Source: a virus (taxonomy: Duplodnaviria; Heunggongvirae; Uroviricota; Caudoviricetes). Taken from it: a stretch of DNA of 10,613 nucleotides. Position 1 is the stretch's first letter. Each line of letters opens with the position of its first letter. The notes below the pieces were generated by a model. It was not told where the DNA came from and ran no database searches. It worked only from the letters and a program-made list of their open reading frames with translations. This document shows, piece after piece, positions 1 to 10,613 of this stretch. The stretch lies in the IMG/VR virus record IMGVR_UViG_2778261300_000008; one strand, given 5' to 3'. Position numbers and translations under genes: made by a program.

Positions 1-183
1 CAGGCAGTTCATCGGCTCAATAACATACGGTGCCACCAGCGGATCCCACGGGACTGAGTTCCCTGCCCCCATGGGCACCCGCATATACTGAGCAACGGCA
101 TCAGCAACCCGCATTCGTCTCGGTGCGCGAAGGATATAACCTGAATCGGTTCGTGCTGCCTTTGCGGTTTCCTGATTCAGCAT
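1..183 (-). CDS. Terminase large subunit, N-terminal 61 codons (partial, runs off window start)
   Basis: The ATG at 181-183 overlaps the TAA stop of the upstream small-terminase gene by one base, and the reading frame stays open to position 1. Assignment is by position after the Nu1-like gene; I do not recognise the sequence itself. Confidence 0.45.
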   Translation of the reverse strand, partial: MLNQETAKAARTDSGYILRAPRRMRVADAVAQYMRVPMGAGNSVPWDPLVAPYVIEPMNCL

Positions 184-677
184 TACTCCTCCTGCTGTAA
201 TTCCTCCTCATCATCCGCACCTGCTTCAGTCACCCGCAGGGCTATCTGATCGCGCAGATCATCAATAATGGACTGAACACGGCTCACAGCGGCAGGCTGC
301 AGACCGCAGTCACGTTCAAGAATATCCGGTAATGTCTCCAGCACCTGCACGACCGCTTTTGCCCAGATGGCAAACTCCCGTCTGACATCACTGGCCGGAA
401 TGAGTTGTGCCGTTTCCTGTTCGAACTTAAGACGCTCACGTTCAGACTGATACCAGGCTTTGCGCTCATGCGCGTCCATTTCGCCTTCTGCAACCGGCGG
501 TGGTAATGCCAGAAATGCTGACACAATATCAACCACCCGATAAAGCTTGAGGTTGCTTTCATGCCCCCCTGCAACGGGTAGATTTTGCAGCCTTGCCGCA
601 GCAGTCTGGCGATGTACACCTGACAGTGCCGCCAGTTGACTGATATTCAGCGTCAGATTTTTTAACTCTCGCTCCAT
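183..677 (-). CDS. Terminase small subunit (Nu1-like DNA-packaging protein)
   Basis: 164-aa ORF whose N-terminus aligns by eye with the lambda Nu1 winged-HTH region (ISQLAALSGVHRQTAAARLQNLPVAGGHESNLKLY versus Nu1 KKQLADIFGASIRTIQNWQEQGMPVLRGGGKGNEVLY), followed by an acidic C-terminus. GGAG lies 8 nt upstream of the ATG, and a cos-like site sits about 175 bp upstream. Confidence 0.65.
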   Translation of the reverse strand: MERELKNLTLNISQLAALSGVHRQTAAARLQNLPVAGGHESNLKLYRVVDIVSAFLALPPPVAEGEMDAHERKAWYQSERERLKFEQETAQLIPASDVRREFAIWAKAVVQVLETLPDILERDCGLQPAAVSRVQSIIDDLRDQIALRVTEAGADDEEELQQEE

Positions 678-1492: not shown

Positions 1493-1960
1493 TCATCGAA
1501 GGCATTGCGTCCTGATGTATTCCTGAAGCGTTCTCAGTGCTGTTTGGTCGCGGATAATTCCGTCCCGGATACCGAGAACGTTTCGTCCAGCAACTGGAGA
1601 GAGTTCGACGGTGGCATCATTGCCCATGCCGGAGGCGCTGGAGGTTTCGGCTGAGGATGGCACAGGGCATTTTCCTTTGACGAACACCCGACCACCATTA
1701 TCAAGCTTGCGCCGAAGAGCATCATTTTCAGCTTTCGCATCAGCTAACTCCTTCGTGTATTTAGCATCGAGTGCATCAGCAGAACGCTGGCGCTGCTGCA
1801 TGTCAGTAATGGTGGCGGTCGCCTGCTTCAGCTCACTGACTTTTTTATCTCGCTGTTCTTTGTAGGCGATGGCGTTATCACGGTAATGATTGACCGCCCA
1901 CGACAGGCAGACGATGATGCAGATAACCAGAGCGGAGATAATCGCGGTTACTCTGCTCAT
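1493..1960 (-). CDS. Rz: i-spanin Rz
   Basis: The product [30 protein letters not shown]... closely matches lambda Rz as recalled. I place the start at the MSRV Met (1958-1960), which overlaps the endolysin stop, rather than at the first ATG of the ORF-track entry. Confidence 0.9.
1534..1740 (-). CDS. Rz1: o-spanin Rz1, lipoprotein embedded in the +1 frame of Rz
   Basis: Product [21 protein letters not shown]... has the lambda Rz1 N-terminus pattern, a lipobox (VVGC) and a proline-rich stretch, and is wholly embedded in Rz. Confidence 0.85.
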
Positions 1961-2454
1961 TGTTGCCCCCACAAACAGACTTCACGCTCAATCTCACGAC
2001 GAGTCATCAGGCCTTTCCATTGCTTACCGCCAGCGTATATCCAGCGACGTAGCTGGTCACATGCGCCTTTGATATCGCCCTGGTTTATTTTGCGAAGAAG
2101 CGTCGATGTTCTGAAATTGCCAGCACCCACGTTGTAGACGAACGAGTAAAGAGCGCCGCGCGTTGTTTCCGGTATATCGACTTTGATGTACGGGTTAATT
2201 TGTCTGGCAACCGTGGCAAGGTCTTTATTCAGGAGGGCTTTGCATTCTGCTTCGGTATACGTTTTACCGAGCATGATGTCTTTTCCGGTGTGTCCGTGAC
2301 ATACAGTCCATACGCCAACGATATCTTTGTATGGTATGTAGCTGACACCTTCCAGGCCATCGTCACCACTTGGGCCAGTGATTAACACTGATGCTATAGC
2401 AATTGCTCCGCCACCAATAGCAGCAGCAACTGCTTTTCGTAATGATGGAGGCAT
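1957..2454 (-). CDS. SAR endolysin (phage 21 R-type lysozyme)
   Basis: The 165-aa product begins [27 protein letters not shown], a glycine/alanine-rich signal-anchor-release N-terminus, and matches phage 21 R as recalled. The start overlaps the stop of the holin remnant (TAATG). Confidence 0.9.
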
Positions 2455-2516
2455 TATTCACCTCTCGCAGCCTTGCGCTTATCTTCTTTAATCTTGAAAT
2501 AAAGGTTTGTCAGGTA
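2454..2516 (-). pseudogene. Pinholin (S21-like) 3' remnant, last ~19 codons only
   Basis: The minus-strand frame ending at the TAA that overlaps the endolysin ATG reads [20 protein letters not shown], matching the recalled S21 C-terminus LTNLYFKIREDRRKAARGE. Upstream of the Tyr codon the frame diverges (PG...), and no transmembrane segments or start codon are present. Confidence 0.6.
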
Positions 2517-2749
2517 CCCTGGCGACGCGCCTTACGCGTTAACCAGCCTTCTGCTTCCAGCCGTGCGATAGCCGTTCTGACGGTACTCATCCCCGCGCCA
2601 ATCTGACGGGCAATGGTTTCAATTGATGGCCAGCACACACCTTCGTCATTACTGAAATCAGCCAGGCGGGCCATAATTGCCACGCTGGATAACTTCATGC
2701 CTGATGCAGCGCAACCATCCCATACATAGCCGGTTAATTTAGTGCTCAT
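2510..2749 (-). pseudogene. Replication-initiator (O-like) N-terminal fragment, truncated at a deletion junction
   Basis: The 79-aa ORF MSTKLTGYVWDGCAASGMKLSSVAIMARLADFSNDEGVCWPSIETIARQIGAGMSTVRTAIARLEAEGWL has a winged-helix fold pattern typical of lambdoid replication-protein N-termini. AGAGG lies upstream of the ATG, and the frame ends with a short unrelated tail (TRKARRQGT*) as it enters the holin remnant. Confidence 0.55.
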
Positions 2750-2758
2750 GACCGACCT

Positions 2759-3097
2759 CTATTTCCCTGAATTTACGACGAAACTGTTCGAGCGGACTGA
2801 AGCATTCATGCTCATAACCTTCGCGGAGGTAGATAACCCGTTGTGTTTCCGGCTCCCAACGAATGACTCTGACGGGCACTCCGTAGTGATCTTTGAACCA
2901 GCAGTTAACTTGTCGCAAAGGACTGTCTCCTTCTGCCGGTTGAAATCACCCACAGCCCACTCTGCAAAGCTGTGGGTTACAATTTCCCTGTCACCTGGTA
3001 CATTCACTGCATAGCAATATTCCACCTTCGCTTTTCCACCCGGTACAGGAAGCGCAATCAGTTGCGAGCGACGGTAGTGTGTTGTTAAACTGTTCAT
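2759..3097 (-). CDS. Hypothetical protein in the early-right operon
   Basis: The 112-aa ORF is translationally coupled at both ends: its ATG overlaps the stop of the upstream gene (ATGA at 3094-3097), and its stop lies 8 nt before the replication-fragment start. I do not recognise the product. Confidence 0.45.
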
Positions 3098-3663
3098 GCG
3101 TTAGTTTCTCCACAACCAGAAGCAATCGACGCCACGACGCCCGGAGCTGCACACTCGCGGGCGTCATTACTTTCTGAAATGCAAAAAATTTTGTAGACAA
3201 GTGCTGCATGCTCCTGCAGCTTCGAAATTGAGAGATACAGCTCGTCGTTAATTGCTGTCTTCTCATGCGGTTCCACTACACCGTCTTCGATTGCTGAACG
3301 AATCTGTTTTGAATAACTGCCGATCTGTTCAATGACTTCCAGCAGACGCTGGTTAATATCGGCGTTGTCCACATCCTCGACGTCAGGAAGAGACACAAAG
3401 ACGCCATTTGCAGACTGCGCCACAGCATCAGCAATGAAGTGAGTGCCACCAGCACGCTGTAAAACCATTGCCCATCCCAGCGGGAAAATCTGATCGCCAT
3501 CTGCACGAAGGCGGTTGAATAAAGCGTTTTCTGTTACATCGAGCCAGTCAGCCGCTTCAGCGTAACCACCCGGCAACGCCGCGATAGTTTTTCTGACAGC
3601 TTTCACGTACCACTCAGGCTGTTTTTCTATTTTCCAGTGATGCTTACCCACGATTAGCCTCAT
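3094..3663 (-). CDS. Putative CII/YdaT-like early regulatory protein
   Basis: 189-aa ORF immediately downstream of the Cro-like gene, the position occupied by cII or YdaT in lambdoid prophages. The Shine-Dalgarno is weak, and the family assignment is by position and general character only. Confidence 0.45.
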
Positions 3664-3694
3664 CGTTCTGTGGTTAAAAATTGAAAGTGTTCTG

Positions 3695-3895
3695 CTAATC
3701 TTTCGGATAGATATCCGGTCTTAAGTCAGATTTCGTAATTGCACCTGACGTGCATTGCTCAAGTTTTTTAGCCAGCACAAAACTGGCTTTTTTATAGCCA
3801 TTGAAAACCAGCCGTAAGTAGCCAGGTGTTGAGCCAACTTTTCCGGCCAACTCGCCCTGCTGTTCTTTGGTTAAAGAGTCCCAATACGCTTTCAT
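3695..3895 (-). CDS. Cro/YdaS-like HTH regulator
   Basis: 66-aa product MKAYWDSLTKEQQGELAGKVGSTPGYLRLVFNGYKKASFVLAKKLEQCTSGAITKSDLRPDIYPKD is divergent from the repressor gene. GGAGGT lies about 9 nt upstream of the ATG at 3893-3895. The longer 167-aa ORF-track version (3695..4198) has no ribosome-binding site and overlaps the repressor. Confidence 0.75.
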   Translation of the reverse strand: MKAYWDSLTKEQQGELAGKVGSTPGYLRLVFNGYKKASFVLAKKLEQCTSGAITKSDLRPDIYPKD

Positions 3896-3897
3896 AC

Positions 3898-3922
3898 AAT
3901 ATGTACCTCCGGTGTACATATT
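3898..3922. promoter_or_regulatory. Operator palindrome (OR-like) overlapping the cro-side promoter -10 and leader
   Basis: Perfect 9-bp inverted repeat AATATGTAC (3898-3906) and GTACATATT (3914-3922) around a 7-bp spacer. It overlaps a minus-strand TAATAT -10 (3918-3923), with a TTGAAG -35 at 3940-3945. Confidence 0.5.
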
Positions 3923-3949
3923 ACATGATTGAAATGAACCTTCAAGATA

Positions 3950-3970
3950 CTTGTACCTTAACGGTACAAG
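3950..3970. promoter_or_regulatory. Operator palindrome (OR-like) overlapping the repressor promoter
   Basis: Perfect 8-bp inverted repeat CTTGTACC and GGTACAAG around a 5-bp spacer, sharing the TGTAC core with the other operators. A TTTAAT -10 at 3974-3979 places the transcription start near the cI ATG. Confidence 0.5.
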
Positions 3971-3985
3971 GGTTTTAATTTCGTT

Positions 3986-4660
3986 ATGAAAACAATCCAT
4001 GACATCCGGCGGTCTAACGCCAGAAAACTGAGAGATGGTGTTGGCGGGAATTCTTCCTTTGCCACTATGATTGATCGCGAGCCAACCCAGACCAGCAGGT
4101 TTATGGGAGATGGTGCTACTAAAAATATCGGTGACAGCATGGCACGACACATCGAAAAATGTTTCGACCTGCCTGTCGGATGGCTCGATCAAGAACACCA
4201 GACAACGAACATCACAAAAAAACCTGATGTTTCAATCACTAATAAACAAATCACATTAGTCCCTGTCATATCATGGGTACAGGCCGGAGCATGGAAAGAA
4301 GTTGGATATTCTGAGGTTGATTTGAGCACAGCAGAAACGTATCCCTGCCCTGTACCCTGTGGGGAAATGACTTATATCTTGCGGGTGATAGGTGATTCAA
4401 TGATTGATGAGTACCGCCCGGGAGACATGATTTTTGTCGATCCTGAAGTACCTGCCTGCCACGGTGACGACGTTATTGCATTGATGCACGATACAGGTGA
4501 AACCACCTTCAAAAGGTTGATAGAAGATGGGACACAGCGTTATCTCAAAGCGTTAAACCCAAACTGGCCTGAGCCTTACATTAAGATCAACGGTAATTGC
4601 TCTATAATTGGTACAGTGATTTTCTCAGGAAAACCAAGAAGATACAAAATCAAAGCCTAA
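3986..4660 (+). CDS. CI/C2-like prophage repressor with C-terminal S24 (LexA-type) peptidase domain
   Basis: The C-terminal half (VISWVQAGAWKEV...VIGDSMIDEYRPGDMIFVDPEV...TTFKRL...LNPNWPEPYIKINGNCSIIGTV) resembles the P22 C2 and lambda CI autocleavage domain, with an Ala-Gly site, a GDSM serine and an FKRL lysine. The N-terminal domain is diverged, there is no Shine-Dalgarno upstream, and an intrinsic terminator follows. Confidence 0.85.
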   Translation: MKTIHDIRRSNARKLRDGVGGNSSFATMIDREPTQTSRFMGDGATKNIGDSMARHIEKCFDLPVGWLDQEHQTTNITKKPDVSITNKQITLVPVISWVQAGAWKEVGYSEVDLSTAETYPCPVPCGEMTYILRVIGDSMIDEYRPGDMIFVDPEVPACHGDDVIALMHDTGETTFKRLIEDGTQRYLKALNPNWPEPYIKINGNCSIIGTVIFSGKPRRYKIKA

Positions 4661-4672
4661 TCAATGTTTATG

Positions 4673-4697
4673 AACCTGCTTCGGCAGGTTTTTTTAT
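4673..4697 (+). terminator. Intrinsic terminator of the repressor gene
   Basis: Stem AACCTGC, loop TTCG, stem GCAGGTT, then TTTTTAT, starting 13 bp after the cI stop. Confidence 0.7.
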
Positions 4698-4699
4698 AC

Positions 4700-4732
4700 T
4701 TGACAATGTACCTTTGAGATACATAATGTACC
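4700..4732 (+). promoter_or_regulatory. pL-like early-left promoter with overlapping operators (OL-like)
   Basis: TTGACA (4700-4705), a 16-bp spacer and CATAAT (4722-4727). The 11-bp perfect palindrome TACATAATGTA (4720-4730) overlaps the -10, and ATGTACC occurs at both 4706-4712 and 4726-4732, sharing the TGTAC core with the OR palindromes. Confidence 0.55.
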
Positions 4733-4853
4733 CAAGCGAAACAACGAACAGTCAGGACGCCCACGAAGTAGCCGCCTGGGGCATATGAAGTCCAGGATGA
4801 TTCGTTGAGTCATGTTGTGCCACTAGGCACTCATGTTAAAGCAGGTGTATGAA

Positions 4854-5129
4854 ATGAAAGTCCAGATTTTAAACAATAACTGTGAAGTCGTTTGGTCATA
4901 CGACATAGCCACCCCTGTAGATCAGAGCGGCGATAGCTGGACCAATGGGAAACATCAGATTATGGCTGGAGTTGTGTTCTCTTTACGCCGTGCTTTGGAA
5001 CAGGCTGAAGTATTTCCATCAGACCCTGAATGGAAATGGCCTTTTTCTATTTGTCCAAATTCGGAGAGCACATTTCAGAAAATTGGTCAGAAAGTCGCAC
5101 TCGAAGAGCATCAGCCAACTGTTTCCTGA
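4854..5129 (+). CDS. Hypothetical protein, first ORF downstream of pL (not N-like)
   Basis: AGGTG lies 6 nt upstream of the ATG at 4854 (the ORF track starts at 4833). The product is not arginine-rich and is unrecognised. Its 3' end overlaps the convergent ORF 5047..5292 by 83 nt, so one of the two may be spurious. Confidence 0.35.
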   Translation: MKVQILNNNCEVVWSYDIATPVDQSGDSWTNGKHQIMAGVVFSLRRALEQAEVFPSDPEWKWPFSICPNSESTFQKIGQKVALEEHQPTVS

Positions 5130-5292
5130 TTTTTTCAGGTAACTCGTCGGCATCGCAGAAACAACAACGCTCGATCATGTTGAAAGCCGATTCGTAGAAC
5201 TGTTTCTGCTGAGTGTCGCTGAGACAGGAAAAGAGCGACGTTACGATGATTTTATTAATTGCATTATCAAGTTCTTTTTCATCAAAAGTCAT
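5047..5292 (-). CDS. Hypothetical small Cys-containing protein, antisense to the pL transcript
   Basis: 81-aa ORF with AAGGA 8 nt upstream of the ATG. The composition is protein-like (helical, five Cys including a CCFC motif), the local DNA is AT-rich, and I do not recognise the product. Confidence 0.4.
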   Translation of the reverse strand: MTFDEKELDNAINKIIVTSLFSCLSDTQQKQFYESAFNMIERCCFCDADELPEKIRKQLADALRVRLSDQFSEMCSPNLDK

Positions 5293-5545
5293 TTGATTTT
5301 CCTTTTATGTATACGGGCTTAAAAGGATACCACCGAGCCTGAAGTGGTGAAAAGACAGGCACATAACAGCTAAGTATTTTCAACCAGAGAGAATCCTTAG
5401 CGTTGTGGTGAATGCGGCTCAGCGCACGCGGGTTAAGGTTGAAGCTGACAGTCGACCTTCTGTGAATACCCACCCGCCTGGTGTGCAACCTTCGCCAGGC
5501 ACCGGGAGGCACCCGGCACCACAACTTTATGCTGTGAGTAGTCCT

Positions 5546-5592
5546 GGCGGTACCAGCTTGTACCATTGCTTCCGGCTGGTACCGTCCTTTTT
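5546..5592 (+). terminator. Strong intrinsic terminator in the pL-operon path
   Basis: 12-bp stem GGCGGTACCAGC (5546-5557) pairs with GCTGGTACCGTC (5575-5586), with one G-U pair, around a 17-nt loop, followed by CTTTTTA. The loop contains CTTGTACC, identical to an OR operator half-site. Confidence 0.6.
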
Positions 5593-5681
5593 ACAAAACA
5601 GAGAAGAGCATCACCGGACGACGGGCTCATAACCCAATCCATCCGGGCGGCTGCCACCGCAGGTGTTCTTCTCTGTTTTGT
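5593..5681. repeat. 15-bp perfect inverted repeat flanking a 59-bp GC-rich spacer
   Basis: ACAAAACAGAGAAGA (5593-5607) and TCTTCTCTGTTTTGT (5667-5681); the pairing extends imperfectly to about 20 bp with wobbles. It lies directly after the terminator and about 50 bp before the yfdP-like start. Confidence 0.6.
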
Positions 5682-5729
5682 GGAGAAACTAACCGACCTT
5701 ACAGGGTCGATATGATGAGGAGCAGCAAA

Positions 5730-6092
5730 ATGGCTAGCGAACGCAGTACTGATGTGCAGGCATTTATCGGGGAGCTGGACGGCGGCGTATTTGAAACCAA
5801 AATCGGCGCAGTTCTCAGTGAAGTCGCTTCCGGTGTGATGAACACGAAAACCAAAGGTAAGGTCTCACTCAACCTGGAAATCGAACCATTTGATGAGAAC
5901 CGTGTGAAAATCAAACACAAACTCTCATATGTTCGCCCGACTAACCGCGGGAAAATTTCCGAAGAAGACACCACCGAAACGCCGATGTATGTCAATCGCG
6001 GTGGTCGCCTGACTATTCTGCAGGAAGACCAGGGACAATTACTGACTCTTGCCGGTGAACCTGACGGAAAACTCCGCGCAGCAGGTCATTAA
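5730..6092 (+). CDS. YfdP-like prophage protein of unknown function
   Basis: GAGGAG lies 8 nt upstream of the ATG at 5730 and falls inside the ORF-track N-terminal extension, so 5730 is the likelier start. The resulting 120-aa product MASERSTDVQAFIGELDGG... matches my recollection of KplE1/CPS-53 YfdP in size and sequence. Confidence 0.65.
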   Translation: MASERSTDVQAFIGELDGGVFETKIGAVLSEVASGVMNTKTKGKVSLNLEIEPFDENRVKIKHKLSYVRPTNRGKISEEDTTETPMYVNRGGRLTILQEDQGQLLTLAGEPDGKLRAAGH

Positions 6093-6157
6093 TATCGTTC
6101 TTAATTAACTGATTATTTATCTCATCACTGAATATCTTTATATAGTGAGGACTTATT

Positions 6158-6982
6158 ATGTCTCAGAACTTAGACGCAACCGCAATTAATCAAATCCATG
6201 CCCTTATTTCTGCTCAGGGTGTTAATGAAATTATCAGTAAGATTGGTGCCGATGCTGTGGCATTGCCTGAGAATTTCCGCATTCATGATCTGGAAAAATT
6301 TAATTTAAATCGCTTCCGTTTCCGTGGTGCGCTTTCCACTGCCAGCATCGATGACTTTACCCGTTATTCTAAAGATCTTGCAGATGAAGGCACCCGCTGC
6401 TTTATCGATGCTGATAATATGCGAGCCGTCAGTGTGCTTAACCTGGGTACTATTGATGAACCAGGTCACGCAGATAACACCGCCACTCTCAAACTGAAAA
6501 AGACAGCACCGTTCTCTGCCCTGTTGTCTGTTAACGGCGAGCGTAACTCCCAGAAGTCACTGGCAGAATGGATTGAAGACTGGGCCGACTACCTTGTGGG
6601 CTTTGATGCTAATGGTGACGCCATTCAGGCAACAAAAGCGGCTGCGGCGGTCCGTAAAATCACGATTGAAGCAAACCAGACCGCTGATTTTGAAGACAAT
6701 GACTTCAGCGGCAAACGCTCTCTGATGGAGTCTGTCGAAGCGAAAACCAAAGACATTATGCCAGTAGCATTTGAGTTTAAATGCGTTCCGTTTGAAGGCC
6801 TGAAAGAACGTCCGTTTAAATTACGCCTCAGCATTATCACTGGTGATCGCCCTGTACTGGTTCTGCGCATTATTCAGCTGGAAGCAGTACAGGAAGAAAT
6901 GGCTAACGAATTTCGTAATCTGCTTGTTGAAAAATTCAAAGACAGCAAAGTAGAAACCTTTATTGGTACTTTCACCGCCTGA
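6158..6982 (+). CDS. yfdQ: YfdQ-like protein (DUF2303 family)
   Basis: 274-aa ORF with GAGGA upstream of the ATG. Size and sequence character match recalled YfdQ of the E. coli KplE1/CPS-53 prophage, and a hairpin terminator follows. Confidence 0.75.
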
Positions 6983-6994
6983 TTTCATTACTGC

Positions 6995-7018
6995 AAATGC
7001 CCCTGCGGGGGCATTTAT
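6995..7018. terminator. Hairpin terminator after the yfdQ-like gene
   Basis: AAATGCCCC (6995-7003) pairs with GGGGCATTT around a TGCG-type loop, flanked by an A-tract and a T-tract, 13 bp after the stop. Confidence 0.55.
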
Positions 7019-7109
7019 GGAAACGTAATTAACTCAATAATCGCCTGATGGCGAGGGTTTTCTTTAACCAAAATTCAGCGCGGTGCAGCGCATATACGTG
7101 GAGAACAAA

Positions 7110-7646
7110 ATGTCATTTATTAAAACTTTTTCCGGGAAGCATTTTTATTATGACAGGATAAATAAAGACGACATCGATATTAACGATATCGCGGTTTCCC
7201 TTTCAAATATCTGTCGCTTTGCCGGTCATCTTTCGCACTTCTACAGCGTCGCCCAACATGCGGTTCTTTGCAGCCAGTTGGTGCCGCAGGAATTTGCTTT
7301 TGAAGCGTTAATGCATGATGCAACAGAAGCGTATTGCCAGGACATTCCCGCACCACTGAAACGCCTTCTTCCTGACTATAAACAAATGGAAGAAAAAATA
7401 GACGCCGTAATCCGTGAGAAATACGGGTTACCCCCAGTTATGAGTACGCCCGTGAAATATGCCGATCTCATCATGCTGGCAACCGAACGCCGCGATCTCG
7501 GGCTTGATGATGGCTCTTTCTGGCCTGTACTGGAAGGTATCCCGGCAACAGAGATGTTCAACGTGATTCCACTGGCACCGGGCCATGCCTACGGGATGTT
7601 TATGGAACGCTTTAACGAGTTATCGGAGTTACGCAAATGCGCATGA
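7110..7646 (+). CDS. yfdR: YfdR-like HD-domain phosphohydrolase
   Basis: An H...HD motif is present (AQHAVLCSQLV...EALMHDATEAYCQD). The product from MSFIKTFSGKHFYYD is 178 aa with GGAG upstream, matching recalled K-12 YfdR. The ORF track begins 27 nt earlier at 7083. Confidence 0.8.
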   Translation: MSFIKTFSGKHFYYDRINKDDIDINDIAVSLSNICRFAGHLSHFYSVAQHAVLCSQLVPQEFAFEALMHDATEAYCQDIPAPLKRLLPDYKQMEEKIDAVIREKYGLPPVMSTPVKYADLIMLATERRDLGLDDGSFWPVLEGIPATEMFNVIPLAPGHAYGMFMERFNELSELRKCA

Positions 7647-7960
7647 ATGTTTTCGAAATGGAAGGGTTTCTTCGTGGGAGATGTGTACCGCGAGATCTGA
7701 AAGTAAATGAAACAGATGCTGAATACCTGGTGCGTAAATTCGATGCGCTTGAAGCTAAATGTGCAGCACAGGAAAACAAAGTAATACCAGTGTCAACTGA
7801 ACTGCCACCAGCAAATGAAAGTGTTTTGTTATTCGATGCTAACGGAGAAGGCTGGCTAATTGGTTGGCGTTCTCTCTGGTACACCTGGGGACAAAAAGAA
7901 ACCGGAGAATGGCAGTGGACATTTCAGGTCTTCAGTCTCCGCTGCATACTGTCCAGGTGA
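7637..7960 (+). CDS. YfdS-like hypothetical protein immediately upstream of int (possibly truncated)
   Basis: 107-aa ORF with GGAG 8 nt upstream; an alternative ATG at 7643 makes an ATGA overlap with the yfdR-like stop. It is mildly acidic and lacks an obvious HTH, so it does not look like a typical excisionase. Confidence 0.5.
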   Translation: MRMNVFEMEGFLRGRCVPRDLKVNETDAEYLVRKFDALEAKCAAQENKVIPVSTELPPANESVLLFDANGEGWLIGWRSLWYTWGQKETGEWQWTFQVFSLRCILSR

Positions 7961-7991: not shown

Positions 7992-9155
7992 ATGTCACTC
8001 TTCCGCAGAGGTGAAATATGGTACGCCAGTTTCACATTGCCGAACGGTAAAAGATTTAAACAGTCTCTTGGAACAAAGGACAAAAGGCAGGCGACAGAAC
8101 TCCATGACAAGCTAAAGGCTGAAGCATGGCGGGTCAGCAAACTTGGTGAAATACCTGATATAACGTTCGAGGAAGCGTGTGTCAGGTGGCTTGAAGAGAA
8201 AGCACATAAAAAATCACTGGACGATGACAAAAGCCGGATCGGATTCTGGCTTCAACATTTCGCAGGAATGCAACTAAGAGACATTACTGAATCAAAAATT
8301 TATTCAGCAATGCAGAAAATGACGAACCGGCGTCATGAGGAAAACTGGAGACTCAGGGCAGAAGCATGCAGAAAAAAAGGGAAACCTGTTCCAGAATACA
8401 CGCCAAAACCAGCGTCCGTTGCAACGAAGGCTACGCATCTTTCATTTATAAAGGCCCTACTAAGAGCCGCAGAGCGTGAATGGAAAATGCTGGATAAGGC
8501 ACCAATTATTAAAGTGCCTCAACCAAAGAATAAACGGATCCGCTGGCTGGAGCCCCATGAAGCACAAAGGCTGATTGATGAATGTCCGGAGCCATTAAAG
8601 TCTGTTGTTGAATTTGCACTGGCAACAGGCTTAAGACGCTCGAACATCATCAACCTTGAATGGCAACAAATAGACATGCAGCGCCGGGTGGCATGGATAA
8701 ACCCGGAAGAGAGTAAATCAAACCGCGCAATTGGCGTTGCGCTGAATGATACTGCATGTCGCGTTTTGAAAAAACAAATCGGGAATCATCACCGTTGGGT
8801 ATTTGTGTACAAGGAAAGCTGTACCAAACCAGACGGAACGAAAGCGCCAACAGTAAGGAAGATGCGGTATGACGCAAACACAGCCTGGAAAGCGGCGCTG
8901 AGACGGGCTGGTATTGATGATTTCAGATTTCACGACTTGAGACACACCTGGGCAAGTTGGCTGGTTCAAGCCGGAGTCCCGTTGTCAGTGTTACAGGAAA
9001 TGGGAGGCTGGGAGTCTATCGAAATGGTTCGTCGATATGCTCACCTTGCACCTAATCACCTTACCGAACACGCACGGCAAATAGACTCGATCCTGAACCC
9101 ATCGGTCCCAAATTCGTCCCAGTCAAAAAATAAGGAAGGTACTAATGATGTGTAA
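7992..9155 (+). CDS. int: Tyrosine integrase, P22 Int type
   Basis: 387-aa product [48 protein letters not shown]...[39 protein letters not shown] closely matches recalled P22 Int, including the catalytic R...HxxR...Y box. GAGGAAAG precedes the ATG, and the stop lies 15 nt from the tRNA 3' end. Confidence 0.95.
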
Positions 9156-9170
9156 CTTATTGATTTAAAT

Positions 9171-9246
9171 GGTGCCGATAATAGGAGTCGAACCTACGAC
9201 CTTCGCATTACGAATGCGCTGCTCTACCAACTGAGCTATATCGGCC
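9171..9246 (-). tRNA. thrW: tRNA-Thr (anticodon CGU)
   Basis: The minus strand reads GCCGATATAGCTCAGTTGGTAGAGCAGCGCATTCGTAATGCGAAGGTCGTAGGTTCGACTCCTATTATCGGCACCA, a 76-nt cloverleaf with a TTCGACT T-loop, anticodon CGT and encoded CCA. P22 Int-type elements are known to target thrW. Confidence 0.92.
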
Positions 9247-9359: not shown

Positions 9360-10613
9360 TTACGCACGAATGGTGTAATCACCAATGCCGATCCACTTGT
9401 AAGTGGTCAGTGCTTCCAGCCCCATTGGGCCACGCGCGTGGAGTTTTTGTGTGCTTACCGCCACTTCCGCACCCAGACCAAACTGGCCGCCGTCGGTAAA
9501 ACGCGTAGAGGCGTTAACGTAAACAGCGGACGAATCCACTTCGTTAACAAAACGCTGGGCGTTGCGCATATCGCGGGTCAGGATCGCATCGGAGTGTTGT
9601 GTGCCGTGTTCACGAATATGGGCGATGGCATCGTCAAGATCGCTGACGATTTTAACGTTCAAATCTAATGACAGAAATTCATCGTCATACTCTTCGGCTT
9701 TAACCGCCACCACCTTCGCAGGGCCTGTCTGCAACTGCGCCAGCGCAGCTGCATCTGCGTGTAATGTCACGCCGCTTTCCGCCATTTGTTTGCTTAATGC
9801 GGGCAGGAAGCTATCGGCGATGTTTTTATTCACCAGCAACGTTTCTACCGTATTACATGTGCTCGGTCGCTGAGTTTTCGCGTTGACGATCACTTTTAAT
9901 GCTTCAGCGATCTCTGCGCTTTCATCAACGTAAATATGGCATACGCCTATACCACCTGTGATCACCGGGATTGTCGACTGTTCGCGGCACAGTTTATGCA
10001 AACCAGCCCCGCCGCGCGGGATCAGCATGTCGATGTATTTATCCATACGCAGCATTTCACTGACCAGCGCACGGTCAGGATTATCAATCGCCTGCACGGC
10101 ACCCGCCGGTAAGCCACAGGATTTCAGGGCGTCCTGAATCACCGCCACCGTTGCCGCGTTAGTGCGACAGGTTTCTTTGCCACCACGCAGGATCACCGCA
10201 TTACCGGTTTTCAGGCACAGCGAAGCGACATCAACCGTCACGTTCGGGCGCGCTTCATAAATCACGCCAATCACCCCCAGCGGCACGCGACGACGCTCAA
10301 GACGCAGGCCGCTGTCCAGTACGCTGCCATCGATTACCTGCCCCACCGGATCGGCGAGGTTACACACCTGGCGCACATCATCGGCAATGCCTTTCAGCCG
10401 TGCGGGCGTCAGTGCCAGACGGTCAAGCATCGCTTCGCCAAGGCCATTGGCACGCGCGTCAGCAACATCCTGGGCGTTAGCGTTGAGGATGATTTCGCTT
10501 TGTGCTTCCAGTTCATCGGCGATTTTTTCCAGCACGCGATTTTTTTCGCGGCTGGAGAGTTGCGCTAATTTATACGAGGCTTGCTTCGCGGCAATGCCCA
10601 TTTGTTCCAGCAT
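9360..10613 (-). CDS. proA: Gamma-glutamyl phosphate reductase
   Basis: The 417-aa product [49 protein letters not shown]... matches recalled E. coli ProA over its full length. The start codon sits at the window edge, and proA next to thrW is the known chromosomal context. Confidence 0.95.

Follow-up and report, generated by a model that had tools for sequence, protein, structure and literature searches.

A probable cI/cro-type immunity switch of an e14/SfV-type lambdoid prophage, with putative operator sites and a leaderless repressor mRNA

The DNA analyzed here (the window, a stretch of 10,613 nucleotides) contains at positions 3896-3985 a 90-bp gap separating a minus-strand open reading frame of 66 amino acids from a plus-strand open reading frame of 224 amino acids (Table 1). 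The cI-cro regions of several phages share 98-99% identity with the 1.3 kb surrounding this gap, namely those of the Shigella phages SfV and SfIV, of the Escherichia phages PhiR29 and PhiR49, and of Ayreon, 2H10, cdtI and Stx2c-converting phages. The locus was also matched in 2452 of 5426 complete E. coli genomes (~45%), where the genes carry the names ymfK, ymfT and ymfL, and across the intergenic region 121 of 121 bp are identical to the e14 prophage of E. coli K-12 MG1655 (ymfK/cohE - ymfT/croE). On a larger scale the prophage is a mosaic, e14-like over window positions 2516-4806 (99.2% identity) and SfV-like over 3084-7930 (97% identity). A tyrosine integrase gene (7992-9155, plus strand) is followed directly by tRNA-Thr(CGT) (9170-9245, minus strand) and by host proA (9360-10613, minus strand). 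At this junction lie the end of the prophage and its attachment site, which is of the SfV/SfIV type at thrW and not the icd site of K-12 e14. The prophage is probably defective. Further inverted repeats with perfect arms of 8-10 nt are found at 1258-1283, 5012-5037 and 6995-7016, the last of which lies directly after a DUF2303 gene and is terminator-like. At the other end of the window, a lysozyme gene (1957-2454, minus strand) and a DUF1441 gene (183-677, minus strand) stand close behind ymfM, and the replication, dam and Q genes that SfV carries after ymfM are absent at that place; coverage of the window reached at most 79% in any complete E. coli genome of the collection.

The C-terminal domain of the rightward gene product aligns to lambda CI, with VQAG (Ala100-Gly101), GDSM (Ser138) and TFKR (Lys176) opposite VQAG, GNSM and TFKK of the lambda protein, and in this sequence alignment Ala100-Gly101 takes the place of the lambda cleavage site, with Ser138 and Lys176 in the places of the catalytic pair. 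The N-terminal domain gave no Pfam HTH match at E<=0.01. For the leftward protein, the Pfam matches to YdaS and HTH_3 are weak and below the cut-off, and there is a weak match to the solved Cro proteins 8co2/8c7k (PDB, E 0.01); the annotations of SfV and e14 agree with the assignment of both genes. The gene following the cro-like gene (3094-3663, minus strand) belongs to the phage 186 CII (CP76)/YmfL family, and beyond it the ymfM product of the window is 99% identical to K-12 YmfM, a cell-division inhibitor. In K-12, cohE (= ymfK), which is essential in the Keio collection, has been reported as the CI-like repressor of e14. A divergent repressor and Cro-like gene thus flank a short control region, as in a lambda-type switch, and we consider it very probable that the locus is a cI/cro-type lysis/lysogeny (immunity) switch of an e14/SfV-type lambdoid prophage, built like that of lambda, in support of a sequence-only reading that had proposed an immunity switch here. 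Two side observations concern these genes. In the record of Hafnia phage yong2 an internal Met (locus 1723) is given as the start of the repressor; the open reading frame in its full length of 224 amino acids (1606-2280) aligns with YmfK and has the same layout of TTTAAT, 6 nt and ATG. If YmfL drives a repressor establishment promoter, that transcript would be leadered, yet without a Shine-Dalgarno sequence before the ATG at 3986.

Two perfect palindromes had been described in the gap, and the coordinates and the arms are indeed exact. The first, 3898-3922, reads AATATGTAC-CTCCGGT-GTACATATT with perfect 9-nt arms, and the second, 3950-3970, reads CTTGTACC-TTAAC-GGTACAAG with perfect 8-nt arms. 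Their centers of 7 and 5 nt are, however, not palindromic, and the two elements are properly inverted repeats, which do share the TGTAC(C) half-site ascribed to them, in the form TGTACC/GGTACA. The recurring unit is a 17-bp site, TGTACC-N5-GGTACA, and comparison of the sequences strongly supports three putative copies of it in the cI-cro gap, designated O1, O2 and O3. The claim that palindromes sit over the divergent promoters holds for the two sites originally seen, but it had overlooked the third and weaker one, O2, which appears when three mismatches are allowed and which by itself is a chance-level match in the window. O2 shares 79% identity over 19 nt with the OL1 site (4705-4723) downstream of the repressor gene (family D1). 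O1 overlies the predicted start of pR and the ribosome-binding site of the cro-like gene, O2 adjoins O3 without a spacer, and O3 overlies the -35 element and the spacer of the repressor promoter, such that several related pseudo-palindromic sites lie over both divergent promoters, one defined by a mapped repressor start and the other being the inferred pR. The center-to-center distances are 33 bp from O1 to O2, 17 bp from O2 to O3 and 20 bp from OL1 to OL2, and the OR and OL clusters are ~800 bp apart.

Table 1. Features of the switch region and conserved intergenic segments, in window coordinates; conservation refers to the 21 distinct regions compared.
Feature	Position	Strand	Description
cro-like gene (ymfT/croE)	3695..3895	-	66-aa ORF; annotated cro/ymfT in SfV, E. 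coli
O1 putative operator	3902-3918	.	TGTACC-TCCGG-TGTACA; 1 mismatch; core of 3898-3922
Segment TGTACCTCC	3902-3910		invariant (n=21)
cro-like gene Shine-Dalgarno GGAGG	3906..3910	-	10 nt before ATG; inside O1; invariant across relatives
Segment, O1 center	3911-3914		variable
Segment TACA	3915-3918		invariant
pR (inferred)	3918..3945	-	-35 TTGAAG 3945..3940, 16-nt spacer, -10 TAATAT 3923..3918; predicted start ~3911
O2 putative operator	3935-3951	.	TGAACC-TTCAA-GATACT; 3 mismatches; weakened site over pR -35
Segment TGAACC	3935-3940		invariant
Segment CAAG	3943-3946		(near-)invariant
Segment ACTTGTACC	3949-3957		invariant, except 3949 (20/21)
Repressor promoter (pRM-like)	3951..3979	+	-35 TTGTAC 3951-3956, 17-nt spacer, -10 TTTAAT 3974-3979
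O3 putative operator	3952-3968	.	TGTACC-TTAAC-GGTACA; 0 mismatches; core of 3950-3970
Segment, O3 center	3958-3962		0.2-0.6 bits
Segment GGTACA	3963-3968		(near-)invariant
Segment TnTAAT	3974-3979		conserved
Segment before ATG	3980-3985		0.1-0.5 bits; length constant in 20/21, one 7-nt exception
cI-like repressor gene (ymfK/cohE)	3986..4660	+	224 aa; Peptidase_S24, E 1.5e-26; leaderless mRNA
Segment ATGAAAAC	3986 onward		conserved; wobble position 3994 fully degenerate
Intrinsic terminator after repressor gene	4672..4698	+	hairpin 4672-4691: 8-bp stem, 4-nt loop; T-run
pL-like promoter	4700..4727	+	TTGACA-16-CATAAT; 11/12 match; predicted start ~4734
OL1 putative operator	4707..4723	.	TGTACC-TTTGA-GATACA; 1 mismatch; within pL spacer
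OL2 putative operator	4727..4743	.	TGTACC-CAAGC-GAAACA; 2 mismatches; over pL -10 edge + start

With up to two mismatches, TGTACCNNNNNGGTACA occurs five times in the 10.6-kb window compared with an expectation of 0.28, and none of 200 shuffles reached five occurrences. The matches are located at 3902, 3952, 4707 and 4727 and at one position within the repressor gene, four of the five falling in the two promoter regions. The match inside the repressor gene (4351-4367) was discarded as a chance occurrence, and it is not kept as a site in Hafnia phage yong2. In the SfV record (GenBank U82619) a regulatory feature named "putative operator region" corresponds to window 3901-3969 and runs exactly from the first half-site of the first repeat to the last half-site of the second. 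This annotation, together with the phylogenetic footprint described below, supports the reading of the inverted repeats as candidate operators. The searchable literature yielded neither an experimental operator definition (for ymfK, cohE, croE, SfV, SfIV or the motif) nor a binding experiment with YmfK or YmfT on these sites.

For the footprint, homologous regions were gathered by a genome scan with the repressor protein and from phage matches, which included Hafnia phage yong2 at 77% identity, giving 22 regions of which 21 are distinct. The hosts belong to the Enterobacterales (among them Escherichia, Hafnia, Pseudocitrobacter, Klebsiella, Atlantibacter, Leclercia, Phytobacter, Enterobacter, Pantoea, Trabulsiella, Kluyvera, Limnobaculum, Rahnella, Edwardsiella and Entomohabitans), and the repressors of the compared regions are 73-100% identical. 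The intergenic alignment over 3902-3971 is free of indels, and among the 21 distinct regions the half-sites are invariant or nearly so while the 5-bp centers vary. O2 reads TGAACC-N5-GGTACT in most genera, with two mismatches to the consensus, and has GATACT as its right half in the window; the departures of O2 from the consensus are themselves conserved, which suggests that this site is kept weak on purpose.

The same alignment bears on two explanations in which the repeats would not be prophage operators at all. The first takes 3950-3970 with its T-run for an RNA hairpin or intrinsic terminator and not for a protein site, as might be supposed from a terminator scan that flags 3950-3970 plus GGTTTTAATT. 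We consider this very improbable, as the T-run is not kept in relatives, which have CAATGTTTAAT, GGCTATGTAAT and other sequences in its place, the stems are invariant without any compensatory changes, and the same motif lies within the pL spacer in the form of the less self-complementary OL1. The second takes the sites for LexA (SOS) boxes of the host, or for repeats that arose by chance. The e14 genes do appear in lists of SOS genes, and TGT...ACA is superficially like CTGT-N8-ACAG, but no CTGT-N8-ACAG occurs at two or fewer mismatches in 3890-3990 or 4695-4750, the spacing here is TGT-N11-ACA as against TGT-N8-ACA for LexA, and the e14 genes are induced late and do not track the LexA heterology index. 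Chance is excluded by the shuffle statistics and by the conservation, and this explanation as a whole is hardly credible, the least probable of those considered here.

The repressor promoter can be placed with reference to published transcription-start data. The sequence-only reading had proposed that the repressor ATG lacks a Shine-Dalgarno sequence and that the TTTAAT, which ends 6 nt before the ATG at 3986, is a -10 element from which transcription would start at or next to the start codon, giving a leaderless mRNA, and it had suggested dRNA-seq as one means of checking this. Such mapping was already in print with the predicted result. In the dRNA-seq study of Romero et al. (2014), the ymfK start site coincides with the A of the start codon, which leaves a leader of 0 nt and not a long one, the nearest start in Table S3, RVS_(I)-1202156, is the gene start itself, and ymfK is one of five E. 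coli K-12 mRNAs with leaders of <10 nt (PMC4681348). The start was mapped in the K-12 lysogen and not in the window's own host, and because the window DNA is identical to K-12 e14 it carries over to window position 3986. The leaderless repressor mRNA is thereby confirmed, and the TTTAAT fits the mapped start as its -10 element. No Shine-Dalgarno core is present in the 20 nt upstream of the ATG, as had been claimed, and the start codon is ATG in 22 of 22 loci. Going back in frame from the repressor ATG, a stop is reached at 3959-3961 before any other start codon, and the full degeneracy of the wobble position of codon 3 shows that translation begins at the ATG at 3986. The mRNA therefore starts at its initiation codon, which is AUG, and has neither a Shine-Dalgarno sequence nor an upstream start codon; it is among the few leaderless mRNAs that occur naturally in E. 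coli.

In 19 of the 21 sequences the repressor -10 element lacks an A at -11, and the promoter is for this reason probably intrinsically weak. Relative to the start at 3986, O3 extends from -34 to -18 and O2 from -51 to -35, with its center at -43. A simple sigma-70 consensus scan finds pL only, the repressor promoter and pR falling below it, and these two promoters are instead identified from the mapped repressor start and from conservation. pR scores 8/12 against the consensus, the TTG of its -35 element and the -11A and -7T of its -10 element are invariant or nearly so, and its spacing is constant. From its predicted start, O1 would span -7 to +10 and include the Shine-Dalgarno sequence of the cro-like gene.

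Beyond the repressor gene a hairpin with a T-run is present in all relatives compared, and the SfV and Ayreon records both carry an annotated terminator behind cI. It is followed by the pL-like promoter, which is annotated as a promoter in phage Ayreon and whose two hexamers are invariant in 22 sequences. The half-site was said to recur at this promoter, and it does so twice, as OL1 and OL2, such that a second putative operator cluster lies at a pL-type promoter beyond the repressor gene. In OL1 the TGTACC and GrTACA half-sites are conserved and the center is variable; OL2 has a nearly invariant left half and a weak right half that is degenerate between genera. The pL footprint as a whole reads as an invariant TTGACA-aTGTACC, a variable N5, GrTACATAATGTACC and then the degenerate right half. 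The Romero table lists no start at the predicted pR or pL (~1202231 and ~1201408; PMC4681348), which is absence of evidence only, though the missing start sites fit repression of both promoters in the lysogen.

The first ~70 nt of the predicted pL transcript contain a further element at ~4745-4806 (plus strand), of the form AACAGGCAGGACGCCCACGAAGTAGCCGCC-[5-bp stem]-GCrUAyGAAnn-[stem]-GAUGAUUCGC, which is present as a single copy in the window. It is found in 11 of 22 related loci (12 sequences with K-12 e14), independent of the next gene, and its 5-bp hairpin (4775-4779 / 4792-4796) has three covarying pairs and none broken among 10 sequences. The hairpin matches no Rfam family, even at E<=10, and over 3850-4900 the Rfam search gave only sub-threshold matches, on the cI terminator. 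The element could be a cis-acting RNA, with a role in antitermination, in stability or as a nut-like site. SfV and SfIV are reported to be without N (PMC3851460), and for that reason a cis-acting leader RNA at pL deserves attention. A tRNA-like sequence was also seen by eye in yong2 at ~2470-2545, downstream in the pL operon.

Taken together, these features suggest a mechanism on the model of lambda. The rightward gene would encode a lambda-CI-like repressor, YmfK/CohE, with an N-terminal DNA-binding domain and a self-cleaving S24 peptidase domain, and the leftward transcript would supply the Cro-like YmfT/CroE, the CII-like YmfL and the division inhibitor YmfM. Repressor dimers at O1/O2 and at OL1/OL2 would silence pR and pL by analogy with lambda, and repressor bound at O2 may stimulate its own weak promoter, as it does from lambda OR2. 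O3 might serve in negative autoregulation, or as the target through which Cro shuts off repressor synthesis, or both, and RecA-stimulated self-cleavage at Ala100-Gly101 would free both lytic promoters. The repressor promoter is active in the K-12 lysogen (PMC4681348). Late in the SOS response there is a joint rise of ymfM, on the pR side, and of ymfJ, which in K-12 is the gene directly behind pL, and the authors of the SOS study ascribe this late induction to a CI-like mechanism and not to LexA. The five putative operator sites and their overlaps with the promoters are strongly supported in silico; which protein takes which site, and in what order, we infer.

One alternative concerns the identity of the bound protein. 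The inverted repeats might be bound mainly by YmfT or by another prophage regulator, such as the CII-like YmfL, instead of the S24 repressor, and it is the case that in lambdoid phages the Cro protein and the repressor use common operators and that YmfL is a predicted DNA-binding regulator. Nevertheless, the same motif covers both pR and pL, where a maintenance repressor is expected; both arms appear silent in the lysogen, only the repressor promoter being seen to fire; and the SOS induction of both arms is in keeping with a self-cleaving repressor. In addition, the N-terminal residues of the repressor (the first 20 amino acids, in all loci) are conserved where the half-site is kept, a wider N-terminal stretch having been compared between the window and Hafnia phage yong2. 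Binding mainly by YmfT or YmfL is accordingly unlikely in our estimation, and we retain the S24 repressor as the predicted principal ligand.

A more substantial alternative is that the operators are real but follow a logic different from that of lambda, either with O3 acting in a purely self-limiting manner without activation from O2, or with O2 and O3 forming a single 34-bp site for a tetramer. O3 is the only site with no mismatches, and it lies over the -35 element and spacer of the repressor promoter; O2 and O3, at 17 bp from center to center, are on roughly opposite faces of the helix; and the O2/O3 junction, GGTAC-TT-GTACC, is itself an inverted repeat. A non-lambda order of occupancy is a live alternative, given that O3 agrees best with the consensus and has no spacer between it and O2. 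With the two sites abutting, unlike those of lambda, and the one nearest to the consensus lying over the repressor's own promoter, neither the lambda order nor positive autoregulation can simply be assumed. Against this, activity of the repressor promoter can be detected in the lysogen, and the poor -10 element of this promoter, without an A at -11, suggests that it needs help. Lambda OR2 is centered at ~-42 from the pRM start and activates from there, and the position of O2 at -43 is near this activating position, while agreement with a consensus is a poor predictor of affinity. We therefore regard a non-lambda logic as possible though the less probable course, and prefer the lambda-like order as the working model.

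It is more doubtful whether the e14/SfV switch should be regarded as a distinct variant of lambda's, defined by a weakened O2 with an abutting O3, a repressor promoter without the -11A, repressor transcripts free of a Shine-Dalgarno sequence, and the leader hairpin. On such a reading O2 and O3 may constitute a 34-bp composite over the repressor promoter -35, and since no conceivable transcript carries a Shine-Dalgarno sequence, synthesis of the repressor would always need initiation at a 5'-terminal AUG. If true, the variant could mean that a lambda-like switch is coupled to a protein-independent (put-like) or new form of early-transcript control.

Both main claims were already on record, the operators through the putative operator region of SfV and the leaderless ymfK mRNA through its mapped start, and the finding leaves the understanding of such switches unchanged, being correct but ordinary. 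New here is the comparative map, with its three OR and two OL sites and their promoter overlaps, which provides a ready basis for footprinting and reporter work. The switch governs the SOS-inducible division inhibitor YmfM as well as prophage induction, and it is carried by Shigella serotype-converting, Stx2c and cdt phages in addition to the large share of complete E. coli genomes noted above.

The closest known systems are the prophage e14 and the phages SfV and SfIV. The repressor, cro, ymfL and ymfM genes of K-12 e14 are the same as those of the window, but e14 sits at icd, whereas the window prophage is at tRNA-Thr/proA with an SfV-type integrase, and to the right of ~4806 the window follows SfV and not e14. 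SfV and SfIV are 98% identical in the cI-cro region, with the cI terminator and the operator region annotated, and SfV differs in having TATACA in place of TGTACA as the right half of O1 and CTATC in place of TTAAC as the center of O3, the other half-sites being the same. With lambda itself the switch shares the divergent cI/cro genes, three 17-bp pseudo-symmetric sites in OR, a further cluster of sites at a pL lying beyond cI, a predicted self-cleaving repressor of the S24 type with a C-terminal domain that aligns to that of lambda CI, a repressor mRNA that begins at the AUG as cI does from pRM, and a middle site ~43 bp upstream of the repressor start. It differs from lambda in that the operator sequence is unrelated, that O2 and O3 abut whereas the lambda operators are separated by 6-7-bp spacers, that O3 covers the -35 and not the -10 side, that there are only two OL sites, and that pL lies ~40 bp after cI with no rexAB. 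In addition, N and cIII are reported to be absent (PMC3851460), and the CII-like protein is of the phage 186 CP76 family. Finally, racR, dicA and ymfK have been reported together as prophage regulators of E. coli K-12 with leaders of 0-3 nt (PMC4681348), and racR and dicA are leaderless like ymfK, but they belong to other protein families and have other operators.
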